A stretch of DNA of 25,850 nucleotides from an uncultured Candidatus Saccharibacteria bacterium (GCA_964404915.1 CAYOLX010000003.1:1-25850), one strand, 5' to 3'; counted from the stretch's first letter, positions 7,463 through 12,214 are shown. A program made the numbers and translations. The notes: generated from the sequence alone by a model not told the origin.

Positions 7463-7582
7463 ATTTCTAAATTTCTAATTTCTAATTCCAAAATAAATTT
7501 CAAAAATTTAGAAATTTCGTAATTTTAACATTTTGAAATTTATTGGAAATTGGTAATTGGAAATTTTGTCATTTTATATTTT
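7463..7582 (+). repeat. AT-rich intergenic imperfect inverted-repeat element (AATTTCT / AATTGG subfamily)
   Basis: Left arm is tandem AATTTCT; right arm TTGGAAATTGGTAATTGGAAATT. 7536-7568 matches 19584-19616 at 32/33 nt. Confidence 0.75.
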
Positions 7583-8026
7583 ATGGTTGACATTGAACTT
7601 ATCAAACAATTGAGAGACCAGACCGGTATTTCCATCGGCGAATGCAAAAAAGCGCTTGATGAAGGCGGCACCATTGAAAATGCCAAAGAGATTCTGAAAA
7701 AATGGGGCAAAGATTTGGCGTCCAAAAAGGGCGATCGCGCCACCGGACAAGGCAAGATTGAATCCTATATTCATGCCAATGGCAAGGTGGGGGTTTTGGT
7801 GGAACTTCGTTGCGAAACCGATTTTGTGGCGAATTCACAAGATTTTGCGACTTTGGCGCACGAGCTTTGTTTGCAGGTGGCGGCAATGGGAGATGATTCC
7901 GAGACGTTATTGATGCTTCCGTGGGTCAAAAATTCATCAAAGACAGTTAAGGATTTGATTGATGAAACCATTGCCAAAGTGGGTGAAAACATCGTGCTCC
8001 AAAAAGCGGTTCGCCTGGAAATATAG
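7583..8026 (+). CDS. tsf: Elongation factor Ts, short form
   Basis: IKQLRDQTG.SIGECKKAL, G.IESYIH.NGKVGVLVELRCETDFVA, IAKVGENI. 147 aa from ATG 7583. Confidence 0.95.
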   Translation: MVDIELIKQLRDQTGISIGECKKALDEGGTIENAKEILKKWGKDLASKKGDRATGQGKIESYIHANGKVGVLVELRCETDFVANSQDFATLAHELCLQVAAMGDDSETLLMLPWVKNSSKTVKDLIDETIAKVGENIVLQKAVRLEI

Positions 8027-8082
8027 CGATAGCGCTTGCATCTTCTCATTAATCATCAACTTATTACTTATCAACTATTCTT

Positions 8083-8667
8083 ATGGTTGAAATTATCGCT
8101 CTTATTGCGTTTATTGTTGGCGCCGCCGCCGCCGGCATCGTTTTTGTCCGTAAAATGCCGCAAGCAATCGCGGGTGTGCAAATTTCCGAAAGCCGGCCGT
8201 TGGGATGGCGCGCCGGCACTGTTCGTTTTCTGGAAAAAATCAAACATCACCCGCGCGTGGAGGGTTTTTCATGGATTGAGTTTTTGCAAAAGCAATTATT
8301 AAAGGCGCGCGTAGCGGTGTTGAAAATTGACAACAAAATCAATGATTTGGCGGGAAAATTGCGTCAAAAGCGAGAGAAAAAAATTCAAGAAAATCAAATC
8401 GTTGCCGAAAGCTACTGGCGCGATCTCAAAGGAATTGTTAAAGGCAAAAAAACTTTATCAAAATCCGGGCAAAAAAATAATGCGTCTTATGAAGCAATTA
8501 TTATTGACCATGTTATTTCCGAGCCGCAAAAAAATTCAGAAGGTGTCTTGGCGGTGAAAAAAACCGCGTTGCCCGAAGAGGTTACGAGTCAAAAGCCGGC
8601 AAAAACCTCTAAAAAACGCGGCGCAAGAAAAAAAAGGACTAAGAACGAAAATCCTTTTTCTTGGTAG
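8083..8667 (+). CDS. Hypothetical membrane-anchored Lys-rich protein
   Basis: N-terminal TM (IIALIAFIVGAAAAGIVFV), central coiled coil and basic disordered tail; occupies the space between tsf and the tRNA. Confidence 0.7.
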   Translation: MVEIIALIAFIVGAAAAGIVFVRKMPQAIAGVQISESRPLGWRAGTVRFLEKIKHHPRVEGFSWIEFLQKQLLKARVAVLKIDNKINDLAGKLRQKREKKIQENQIVAESYWRDLKGIVKGKKTLSKSGQKNNASYEAIIIDHVISEPQKNSEGVLAVKKTALPEEVTSQKPAKTSKKRGARKKRTKNENPFSW

Positions 8668-8712
8668 CGTTCTCTTGCCGGCTCATTACTCACAACTCAT
8701 CAACTATTCTCC

Positions 8713-8818
8713 GCCGAGATAGATCAGTGGCAGAGCAACTGTTTTGCGCCAGTCCCGTATAATTTGCCGAGATAGCTCAGTGGCAGAGCAACTGTTTTGC
8801 GCCAGTCCCGTATAATTT
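8713..8818 (+). repeat. Two tandem 53-bp units, each = tRNA-Thr 5' half (34 nt) + 19-nt linker
   Basis: 8713-8765 and 8766-8818 read GCCGAGATAG(A/C)TCAGTGGCAGAGCAACTGTTTTG + CGCCAGTCCCGTATAATTT. Confidence 0.92.
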
Positions 8819-8890
8819 GCCGAGATAGCTCAGTGGCAGAGCAACTGTTTTGTAAACAGTAGGTCGGGGGTTCGAATCCTCTTCTCGGCT
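8819..8890 (+). tRNA. tRNA-Thr(UGU), CCA not encoded
   Basis: Acceptor GCCGAGA/TCTCGGC, D arm GCTC/GAGC, anticodon arm ACTGT-TTTGTAA-ACAGT (TGT at 8851-8853), T arm GGGGG-TTCGAAT-CCTCT. Confidence 0.95.
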
Positions 8891-9020
8891 CAATCTAATT
8901 CTCGGCAAATTTTTACGGGATAAATAGGTCGGAGGTTCGAATCCTCTTCTCGGCTCAATCTAATTTTCGGCAAATTTTTACGGGATAAATAGGTTGGTGG
9001 TTCAAATTCTCTCCTCGGCT
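8891..9020 (+). repeat. Two additional tRNA-Thr 3' halves (8925-8955, 8990-9020) separated by 34-nt linkers, 65-bp period
   Basis: TAGGTCGGAGGTTCGAATCCTCTTCTCGGCT and the more diverged TAGGTTGGTGGTTCAAATTCTCTCCTCGGCT. Linkers are CAATCTAATT(C/T)TCGGCAAATTTTTACGGGATAAA. Confidence 0.9.
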
Positions 9021-9185
9021 CCCATAAAAATGGTTTTTTAAAGCTTGCCTTATCTTGGCGGTTTTTTTTCATTGTGTCGTGTGTTGAAGTTAAATTTTAA
9101 CACAGATTTAAAGTTGTTGAAATTTGATTTTAATACAACATCCTTTAATAAAAACCTCATCAAAATCCTGTTTTATCAACCAAAA

Positions 9186-9229
9186 CAAACCAATGTAAAT
9201 CTTGCTATCGCAAAATTTACATTGGTTTG
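9186..9229. promoter_or_regulatory. 44-bp palindrome immediately upstream of the PaaX-like gene (operator or recognition-site candidate)
   Basis: CAAACCAATGTAAAT-C-TTGC-TATC-GCAA-A-ATTTACATTGGTTTG: 19 of 20 arm positions pair. Confidence 0.7.
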
Positions 9230-9236
9230 GTAATAT

Positions 9237-9815
9237 ATGAATATGGGGACAAATAAGCGGGAAACCGCGAAAAATATTCTGCAATTTTTGCTTGTCGCGG
9301 GGGCGGTGGTTATTGCCGCGAGCAATCCGCGCTTTGGTTCTTTGCTTTTGCGCGGCGCGATGCGAGAATATAACCGCAAGAAAAGATTTCAAGCGAATCG
9401 GCAAAAATTTTACAGCGCTTTTACTTATATGCGCAAACACGGATTGATAGATATTCAATATGACGGCCGGCAAATGTATTTTTCGCTCACCGATGAAGGC
9501 AAGAAAAAAGCCGGTAAATATAAAATCAACGATTTAAAAATCAAGAAATCCAAAAAATGGGACGGCAAATGGCATATACTGATCTTTGATATTGAAGACA
9601 AGCAAAAAATCAAACGGGAGGCGTTGCGGGGAAAAATCAAAGAATTACACTTGTATCAGTTGCAAAAAAGCGTTTGGGTCTATCCCTATGATTTGGCAAA
9701 ACCGATGAAGCTTTTGCGGGAATTCTTCGGCTTGACTGATCAGGAGATAAGAATTATTGTCGCTGATCGCGTTGAAAACGATAAATCCTTGCGTATTTAT
9801 TTCGGTTTAAACTAG
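9237..9815 (+). CDS. PaaX-like transcriptional regulator (wHTH + Cas2-like ferredoxin-fold domain)
   Basis: wHTH segment FTYMRKHGLIDI...FSLTDEGKKK, then KWDGKWHILIFDI...REALR..IKEL..YQLQKSVWVYPYD. Start may be ATG 9243. Confidence 0.82.
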   Translation: MNMGTNKRETAKNILQFLLVAGAVVIAASNPRFGSLLLRGAMREYNRKKRFQANRQKFYSAFTYMRKHGLIDIQYDGRQMYFSLTDEGKKKAGKYKINDLKIKKSKKWDGKWHILIFDIEDKQKIKREALRGKIKELHLYQLQKSVWVYPYDLAKPMKLLREFFGLTDQEIRIIVADRVENDKSLRIYFGLN

Positions 9816-10089: not shown

Positions 10090-10240
10090 TATTTTGAATT
10101 ACGAAGCTCTTATTCGGCAAGTATTTTTGCGGAGCACCAAAAATTTTATTGCTATAAAATTTCCTAGTATTTTGCGCCAGTCGCGCAAAATAATGCTCCG
10201 GCAAAAATACTTGTCTCAGCGAGTTTCGTAATTCAAAATA
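10090..10240. repeat. ~150-bp Y-shaped hairpin element, copy 1
   Basis: Outer stems TTTTGAATTACGAAGCTC/GAGTTTCGTAATTCAAAA, GGCAAGTATTTTTGC/GCAAAAATACTTGTC and GGAGCA/TGCTCC. These close two terminal hairpins, AAATTTTAT-TGCT-ATAAAATTT and TATTTTGCGC-CAGTC-GCGCAAAATA. Confidence 0.88.
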
Positions 10241-12069: not shown

Positions 12070-12214
12070 CTTTGAATTACGAAACTCTTATTCGGCAAGT
12101 ATTCTCGCGGAGCACGGAAATTTTATTGCTATAAAATTTCCTAGTATTTTGCGCCGGTCGCGCAAAATAATGCTCCGCGAAAACACTCGCCTCAACGATT
12201 TTCGTAATTCAAAG
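12070..12214. repeat. ~145-bp Y-shaped hairpin element, copy 2 (direct repeat of 10090-10240)
   Basis: Same architecture and a near-identical core (GGAGCA...AAATTTTATTGCTATAAAATTTCCTAGTATTTTGCGCC(A/G)GTCGCGCAAAATAATGCTCC). Confidence 0.88.

Follow-up and report, generated by a model that had tools for sequence, protein, structure and literature searches.

A tRNA-Thr gene enclosed in two layers of its own halves in a Saccharibacteria genome probably records repeated insertion of a hairpin-armed cassette

GC-rich double-hairpin elements and hairpin-shaped mobile GC clusters are known from fungal mitochondria. Here we analyse a tRNA-Thr(UGU) gene that is enclosed on both sides by halves of tRNA-Thr genes, within a stretch of 25,850 nucleotides (the window) from an uncultured Candidatus Saccharibacteria bacterium (GCA_964404915.1, CAYOLX010000003.1:1-25850). 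The array is probably a DNA-level fossil, formed when a cassette of about 125 bp, made up of a tRNA-Thr gene between two arms, settled in two layers in the anticodon loop of a resident tRNA-Thr gene. Judged by sequence, this cassette is one of a family of hairpin-armed cassettes that occur across the Patescibacteria and share the termini YCCCG...CGGGR. In fuller members of the family, a predicted mini GIY-YIG nuclease gene of about 80 aa lies between the 5' half of the split gene (5' relic) and the left arm.

SegB, a free-standing GIY-YIG homing endonuclease, sits in the tRNA cluster of T4-like phages and cuts within tRNA genes; it spreads by recombinational repair with co-conversion of the flanks, and the segmental amplification of a tRNA gene depends on both its nuclease activity and homologous recombination (PMC2330249, PMC13096335). 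The cassette family resembles SegB in that a GIY-YIG nuclease gene is lodged among tRNA genes. Unlike SegB, which has 200+ aa, a DNA-binding domain and a T-loop motif, the proteins of the candidate phyla radiation (CPR) have about 80 aa, consist of the catalytic domain only and go with a break in the anticodon loop. The cassette, again unlike SegB, has hairpin arms and a complete spare tRNA nested in the old one, and the window copy lacks the nuclease. The Ssn family comprises single-domain GIY-YIG nucleases bracketed by their own palindromic repeat, which is cut as single-stranded DNA (PMC11893778). The genes of the CPR cassettes are likewise small, single-domain and bracketed by a repeat, and the analogy offers a candidate role for their covarying arms. 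The Ssn repeats, in contrast, are dispersed and intergenic, modulate transformation and are not described as invaders of tRNA genes (PMC11893778).

Integrative elements that target tRNA genes, often at the anticodon loop, also keep a functional tRNA and leave tRNA fragments (PMC8371274 and general knowledge). However, they bring only a 3' segment, span kilobases, have an integrase gene and possess a core in common with their target (PMC8371274 and general knowledge), whereas the window cassette carries a whole tRNA in about 125 bp with neither core nor integrase. Archaeal split, permuted and multi-intron tRNA genes are similar in having pieces with complementary flanks and inserts in loops, but their pieces are spliced by EndA at a bulge-helix-bulge and make functional tRNA (PMC4090602, PMC4390854); the window pieces are dead. 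The rRNA genes of CPR bacteria contain non-intron insertion sequences, some of them with homing endonuclease genes, and tRNA is not mentioned in that report (PMC11270868). Those inserts stay within a gene that must function, and none was described with a replacement copy of the host gene (PMC11270868). No published description of such tRNA-replacement cassettes was found in the literature.

The array has the order 5' half, L, 5' half, L, complete tRNA-Thr, R, 3' half, R, 3' half, on the plus strand throughout. This layout and its coordinates had been proposed in a preliminary description made from the sequence alone, and were borne out by re-inspection, ARAGORN and repeat analysis. At the centre lies an intact tRNA-Thr(UGU) gene (8819-8891; ARAGORN; Rfam RF00005, 71.2 bits, E 4e-15), the sole gene for the UGU isoacceptor found in the genome (859 kb, 93.5% complete) and the only part of the array called as a tRNA by ARAGORN and Rfam. 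The outermost relic 5' half (8713-8746), directly preceded by a genus-conserved native leader ending CATCAACTATTCTCC, corresponds to nt 1-35 of tRNA-Thr and ends with TTTTG; it has one difference from the inner tRNA and four from each of the other two alleles of the genus. The L of the outer shell (8747-8765) consists of a spacer CGCCAG (8747-8752) and the left arm TCCCGTATAATTT (8753-8765). It is followed by the middle relic 5' half (8766-8799), which equals nt 1-34 of the inner tRNA with no differences, and by the L of the inner shell (8800-8818), with the spacer CGCCAG and the left arm TCCCGTATAATTT (8806-8818); both copies of L (19 nt) are identical. Behind the intact gene, the R of the inner shell (8892-8924) comprises a spacer AATCTAAT, the right arm TCTCGGCAAATTTTTACGGGA (8900-8920) and TAAA, which corresponds to nt 36-39 of the broken anticodon loop. 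Then come the middle relic 3' half (8925-8956; nt 43 to the discriminator), the R of the outer shell (8957-8989; one difference to the inner R) and the outermost relic 3' half (8990-9021), the oldest piece according to allele comparison. The left unit has a period of 53 nt with one mismatch between copies and the right unit a period of 65 nt with two. As first noticed, the 3' copies diverge outward, the middle one differing from the inner tRNA at one position and the outermost at 5 of 32. Since the two shells are nearly identical (one and two mismatches), the second layer therefore appears recent and intragenomic.

The cassette termini in the window are TCCCG...CGGGA, and the arms are complementary. 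The segment TCCCGTATAATTTGCCGAGA, present at 8806-8825 and again at 8753-8772, matches the reverse complement of 8900-8920 in 19 of 21 positions. In the outer shell, the left arm plus the next GCCGAGA pairs with 8965-8985, and here 18 of the 21 positions match; the 19/21 initially claimed for both pairs thus holds for the inner one only. Folding of a 336-nt stretch gave the concentric helices that had been anticipated (-115.3 kcal/mol, z = -5.3 against 100 shuffles). No sigma-70-like promoter was detected in 8500-9250. A TATAAT within the left arm was rejected as a promoter because only 2 nt separate its end from the tRNA, and the native leader and trailer were rejected as the origin of L and R, L being unlike the native leader.

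The order of tsf, a homologue of a 194-aa open reading frame (ORF) and tRNA-Thr(UGU) is common to 13/13 genomes of the genus. The orthologous site is filled in four of them (two shells in G000, one each in G009 and G007, and R plus a 3' relic in G005) and is a plain tRNA gene in the other nine; such filled and empty orthologous sites are a classical mark of inserted DNA. Three tRNA alleles occur at the site: N1 (GCCGACG...), N2 (GCCGGGG...) and E (GCCGAGA...), the inner allele of the window. In G009, whose inner tRNA is N2-like, the outer 3' relic shows no difference from the 3' half of the N1 gene that is intact in G002. The outermost 3' relic of the window shows three differences to N2, five to E and seven to N1, and N2 is still intact in the congeners G011, G010 and G005. 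Because the outer 3' relics match older alleles, an older resident allele seems therefore to have been split and replaced.

Nests of this kind are not confined to the genus. A pattern of tRNA-Thr anticodon loop, GSGRTAAA and T-arm start was searched in a collection of species-representative genomes. True nests made up about 40 of the 120 matches listed, every one under a CPR title; their lineages were Doudna-, Kerfeld-, Levy-, Wolfe-, Wildermuth- and Moranbacteria, Saccharibacteria, Microgenomates, Parcubacteria and Paceibacterota. Among the matches listed, those from outside the CPR were without half copies. One locus of this collection, L049, has the same sequence as L005. A second pattern, applied to metagenomes, gave nests in about 38 of 120 matches. 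In total, at least about 80 further nests were found in Patescibacteria genomes and metagenomes, so the search for comparable loci in other CPR genomes, suggested at the outset, turned out positive. In an even, order-wide sample, a genuine tRNA-Thr with an R arm occurred in 9-10 of 151 genomes, and a reversed-pattern control gave one match. In the genome of the window itself, tRNA-Thr(GGU) on contig C34 is nested as well (L004:1400-1650; minus strand, about 4720-4870 of C34). This second nest consists of a relic 5' part GCCCGGGTAGCTCAGAGGCAGAGCAA, an arm TCCCTCACTAATAT, the intact tRNA-Thr(GGU), an arm AATCAGTGGGGGA and a relic 3' half; its outer anticodon arm is wholly absent.

The relatives define the insertion point. 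In the window, the 5' halves end with TTTTG and R ends with TAAA, a break in the anticodon loop after G35. In clean cases (L005, L093, L095, L118 and L135), removal of YCCCG...CGGGR restores a perfect anticodon arm, and the insert therefore lies between G35 and U36, without target duplication. Break points follow TG and precede YAA in tRNA-Thr (TTTTG|TAAA), tRNA-Ala (ATTTG|CAAT) and tRNA-Cys (GTCTG|CAAA). The outer halves are usually cognate to each other and unlike the inner tRNA (L041, L073, L093, L095, L114, L118 and L135), which shows that a foreign tRNA arrived. Moreover, one cassette shared by two families has 95% identity over 128 nt, against 67-71% in the flanking coding DNA, which points to horizontal spread. 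Judged from the loci compared, the arm-tRNA-arm cassette came repeatedly, as DNA, into an unbroken tRNA-Thr gene.

The arms themselves covary. Among 32 non-redundant shells, the terminus CGGGR|TAAA is conserved, with a terminal arm pair of T-A in 16 and C-G in 14. Arm positions 6-10 form Watson-Crick pairs in 72-84% of the shells versus 38-49% after random reassignment of the arms to loci (in 1000 shuffles, the observed pairing was never reached), and the mean leader-trailer duplex is -26.1 kcal/mol for cognate and -17.0 kcal/mol for non-cognate partners (30-nt leaders, acceptor excluded), the cognate trailer ranking best of 46 in 17 cases; these figures overstate the significance, as kin are not independent, although the arm sequences are very diverse. 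The proposed covariation of linker complementarity across other CPR loci was thus observed.

Several loci connect the cassettes with the mini GIY-YIG genes. The encoded proteins match the Pfam GIY-YIG family with E 1e-15 to 1e-18, and their nearest solved relatives are small UPF0213 proteins. In the congener G010 (contig C85; L177:330-960, minus strand), a hairpin-armed GIY-YIG gene of 81 aa interrupts a tRNA-Ala(UGC) gene behind G35. The interrupting segment reads TTCCGATTG...GIY-YIG...CAATCGAGAA; next come TCCTCGATTAATTTGGT, an intact tRNA-Ala and AATTAATCGGGA, then the 3' half from C36 and R again, with at least two tandem 3'half-R units in a locus partly masked as N. By its predicted parts, it has the architecture of the window array with the nuclease retained. 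The same design, a nuclease cassette plus arm-tRNA-arm, was found within tRNA-Thr in the metagenomic locus L275, and in L251, L269 and L225 two empty hairpins at 35|36 are followed by a GIY-YIG gene and then a spare tRNA-Thr. When a GIY-YIG gene with an ATG start was required immediately behind the junction, the metagenomes gave no matches; a relaxed pattern gave matches.

The genome of the window has three mini GIY-YIG genes besides UvrC. An exact 9-mer scan of this genome with the arms gave a cassette on contig C115 as the sole match (L166:388-663). This 276-bp cassette consists of TCCCGTTAGAAAT, a GIY-YIG gene of 85 aa and ATTTCTAACGGGA, with 13-bp inverted arms, the stop codon of the gene falling within the right arm, and it interrupts an FGE/SUMF1-like reading frame at RGGNW|NNTS. 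Its arms equal those of the tRNA-Thr cassette in L109, and also in L041 and L105, over 12 nt. Because the same arms bracket mini GIY-YIG genes, the window copy looks like a nuclease-less derivative, in which the gene was lost or never present. In many Thr nests (L097, L118 and L043, for example), an empty hairpin before the left arm occupies the place of the nuclease cassette; in the Microgenomates type it reads TTTTG|TCCCAGC...GCGGGA|TCCCGTA... The window spacer CGCCAG resembles the left end of this hairpin, TCCCAG, and may be a vestige of a lost nuclease cassette.

Mini GIY-YIG genes were also seen elsewhere. The other two of this genome are on contigs C31 (L165; 85 aa) and C49 (L167; 78 aa), where they follow tRNA-Gln(CUG) and tRNA-Ser(GCU) at a distance of about 170-190 nt, with GC-rich hairpins preceding them. 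Across the genus, most such genes follow a tRNA at about 140 nt or lie within a split tRNA-Cys, where the 5' end of the tRNA overlaps the end of the GIY-YIG ORF.

The locus probably arose as follows. The cassette (left arm, complete tRNA-Thr(UGU) and a right arm that can pair with the left arm and the first bases of the acceptor) would enter the resident gene after G35, at TTTTG|TAAA. The resident gene would be split into two dead halves, and the cassette tRNA would take over. As the new tRNA would recreate the target, a second event inside it would give concentric shells. That second layer could be due to re-insertion of the same cassette, or to out-of-register repair of a break in the inner tRNA with the relic halves as homology. 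The window, with an identical L and an R that has one difference, fits out-of-register repair. Of the options in the preliminary description, the one in which a tiny element bearing a tRNA inserts repeatedly into the anticodon region of the same kind of tRNA is thus supported by the filled and empty sites, the nesting and the decay of the outer halves.

As to the molecular events, we infer that a break in the anticodon-loop palindrome (CTGTTT-TGT-AAACAG) was repaired from a filled allele, with relic halves as homology. A GIY-YIG nuclease would cut the tRNA gene, and recombinational repair would copy the cassette in (homing). Such break repair would explain why cassettes occur only in tRNA genes of their own kind with orientation always conserved, and co-conversion would explain the incoming-like outer 5' relic that stands with an old-allele 3' relic in the window and in G009. 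A later break in the spare tRNA, repaired out of register against the relics of the sister copy, would add a shell identical to the last. The arm helix might serve in single-strand DNA recognition or in the processing of a long transcript. It is possible, though we hold it only tentatively and find it less likely than not to be correct, that the family is a self-propagating tRNA-replacement drive, in which the ~80-aa GIY-YIG protein recognises the arm hairpins and/or the anticodon-loop palindrome and repair copies the cassette. The cut would fall after TG and before YAA, and the hairpin, the nuclease and the spare tRNA would be copied from the filled allele. The spare tRNA would restore both function and target, breaks would recur, and the locus would grow shell by shell. 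If true, a drive of this kind would turn over CPR tRNA genes over time and move tRNA alleles between families.

Several observations weigh against the insertion of a cassette as outlined here. The 3' relics of the window lack CAG and its 5' junction has an extra CGCCAG, which is not a clean cut at 35|36. The outermost 5' relic resembles the inner tRNA (one difference) and not the N2 allele of its 3' partner, and this mismatch of alleles therefore needs gene conversion or co-conversion. No nuclease gene is present in 8713-9021 or in the window flanks, and none of the 46 genome-derived Thr nests contains a GIY-YIG ORF; the GIY-YIG ORFs near Thr nests are part of tRNA-Tyr or tRNA-Trp pairs next to them. 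Mini GIY-YIG genes are found in 13/13 genomes of the genus, nested or not, and their number was rejected as a tracker of nesting as it does not discriminate. Finally, the C115 cassette has a 5-bp flanking direct repeat, TGGAA, which is transposition-like and not like homing. Of the two marks of a miniature inverted-repeat transposable element, terminal inverted repeats and a target-site duplication, the window array has inverted arms, and clean tRNA junctions are without target duplication.

Among the alternatives, the best survivor is a single insertion followed by two independent tandem expansions, 53 bp on the left and 65 bp on the right, by slippage or unequal crossing-over; we regard this as unlikely. 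Both sides are indeed plain head-to-tail repeats of 97-98% identity, the end product would be the same in sequence as that of self-nesting, and a strain in the oil-field metagenome X10 is without the outer right part, so the array is unstable. Against this, two separate events would by chance have to produce as many copies on the left as on the right, and the first shell would not be accounted for, only the second. Furthermore, the two- or three-shell loci L097, L123 and L079 have a distinct arm pair for each shell, in strict nested order, and independent slippage on two sides therefore cannot be the source of those nests.

The array might instead be an RNA-level device, with the outer halves as exons of an intron-containing or split tRNA, or with the L:R helix as a switch or decoy for maturation. 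Covariation shows that the L:R helix is conserved, the minimum-energy fold pairs R with the 5' acceptor strand, and ARAGORN still calls a 70-nt tRNA-Thr when shell 1 is excised. That call, however, has a defective anticodon stem, no tRNA is called when shell 2 is excised, and both outer tRNAs of the window lack the CAG of the anticodon stem. In relatives (L005, L006, L019, L020, L034, L072 and L139), the outer halves have decayed, with stem mismatches and with additional GC-rich hairpins inserted into the D-loop, T-loop or anticodon loop. On inspection, the would-be cut sites at 35|36 are flush with the last T-A pair of the helix and not in 3-nt bulges; therefore, there is no bulge-helix-bulge. 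EndA (PF01974) had no match in the 93.5%-complete genome, and the positive control was found in four archaea. A search of 8000-9800 against Rfam with E up to 1 gave no intron or ribozyme, the tRNA being the only match. A group I intron was rejected, since no ribozyme core was recognisable by Rfam and the insert is about 125 nt long versus the at least about 200 nt expected. Among 401 genomes of the phylum, a sole-copy tRNA-Thr carrying such an insert was not found (20 pattern matches versus 12 for a reversed control, none in a tRNA), and every nest examined has an intact tRNA at its centre. The outer halves are decaying relics, not exons. The analogy with archaeal split tRNAs drawn in the preliminary description thus fails, given the missing EndA and bulge-helix-bulge, the missing CAG and the mutated halves of relatives, and we consider a role at the RNA level very improbable. 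Among RNA runs, only two, from sludge, contained 4-8% of the words.

Scars left by integrase-mediated integration and loss of larger elements, such as a phage or an integrative element with part of a tRNA in its att site, are still less credible. Anticodon loops of tRNA genes are classical attachment sites, serial integration leaves fragments (PMC8371274), and the genome has one tyrosine recombinase gene. This gene is, however, the sole PF00589 match and lies on contig C28, and no integrase is near any nest. The junctions TTTTG|CGCCAGTCCCG and ACGGGA|TAAA share no common core, 5' and 3' halves are both duplicated in equal numbers, and the inserts are about 125 bp long with complementary ends.

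The array was recovered outside the genome assembly. Logan contigs of the source run X1 cover all junctions with no mismatches, in pieces 8300-8753, 8777-8852, 8838-8898, 8871-8963 and 8936 or 8967-9200. In X2, an independent sample of another study, every junction piece was again found with no mismatches, 8871-8963 being replaced by 8869-8929 and 8900-8963. In both samples, the middle 3' half (8925-8956) is joined to R on either side. The piece 8777-8852 (5' half, L, 5' half) has about twice the depth of the flank (44 vs 21 and 20 vs 8), and two left units therefore fit, although Logan contigs with k=31 cannot count left copies by themselves. Given these recurrent junctions and the doubled depth, assembly stutter is not the explanation, as the preliminary description had argued. 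The array differs in X10, where a strain of about 98% identity has the order L-tRNA-R-3'half, with 8957-9181 absent, 56 other letters in their place and the outermost 5' variant also absent; the outer layer is therefore polymorphic between strains. An artefact of short-read assembly at a repeated tRNA deserves almost no credence: repeats of 53 and 65 bp exceed common k-mers and the genome is a bin of 121 contigs, but the junctions are mismatch-free in an independent sample and study, variant positions tell the copies apart, left-unit depth is about twice that of the flank and similar nests occur in scores of assemblies, long contigs included.

If cassettes were inserted as proposed, they would provide a route by which a foreign allele overwrites an essential single-copy tRNA gene without loss of function, the overwritten locus leaving a readable stack of older alleles. 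At about 125 bp without and about 400 bp with the nuclease, they would rank among the smallest self-contained or parasitic mobile DNAs, and they bear on tRNA gene evolution and horizontal movement in the very reduced genomes of Patescibacteria. In practice, nests give rise to false calls of tRNAs and to split or pseudo tRNAs, and they break assemblies in metagenome bins. The small nucleases are candidate tools, provided that they cut defined single- or double-stranded sites. The window adds two near-identical shells, polymorphism between strains, a series of filled and empty sites in one genus and matching arms on a GIY-YIG cassette of the same genome.

The array is surrounded by housekeeping genes of bacterial type, namely prfA, rpmE, rpsB, a short tsf, pheST and gyrB. 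The EF-Ts gene (7550-8026) encodes 158 aa, a size kept in 12/12 congeners with 68-83% identity. A terminator-like hairpin plus T-run is located 3' of the array (9045-9069, plus strand). Farther downstream, a palindrome with a perfect 20-bp stem (9186-9229), terminator-like by score on the minus strand, lies directly upstream of an ORF with a PaaX/Cas2 fold (9237-9815). Upstream of tRNA genes, runs of an ACTCATY heptamer ending AACTATTC were observed, as in the window at 8668-8712 and in L002:600-680 (minus strand). These leaders precede the genes for tRNA-Thr(UGU), tRNA-Thr(CGU), tRNA-Arg(GCG), tRNA-Cys and tRNA-Val(CAC). In front of other tRNA genes there are runs of AACTATT or GGATTT, and between these runs and the tRNA, directly abutting the latter, lies a small GC hairpin with the termini CCCGC...GCGGG. 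These heptamer and hairpin leaders may be a common tRNA leader or promoter architecture, or remains of cassettes.

The 13-mer TTTTGCGCCAGTC, present at both 5' junctions of the array, recurs in the window at 10170-10182 and, with one mismatch, at 12147-12159; allowing up to one mismatch, the window has six matches versus 0.16 expected. The spacer CGCCAG may derive from a hairpin like that at 10170-10182, where the 13-mer forms the tip, TATTTTGCGC-CAGT-CGCGCAAAATA, within a Y-shaped repeat element.

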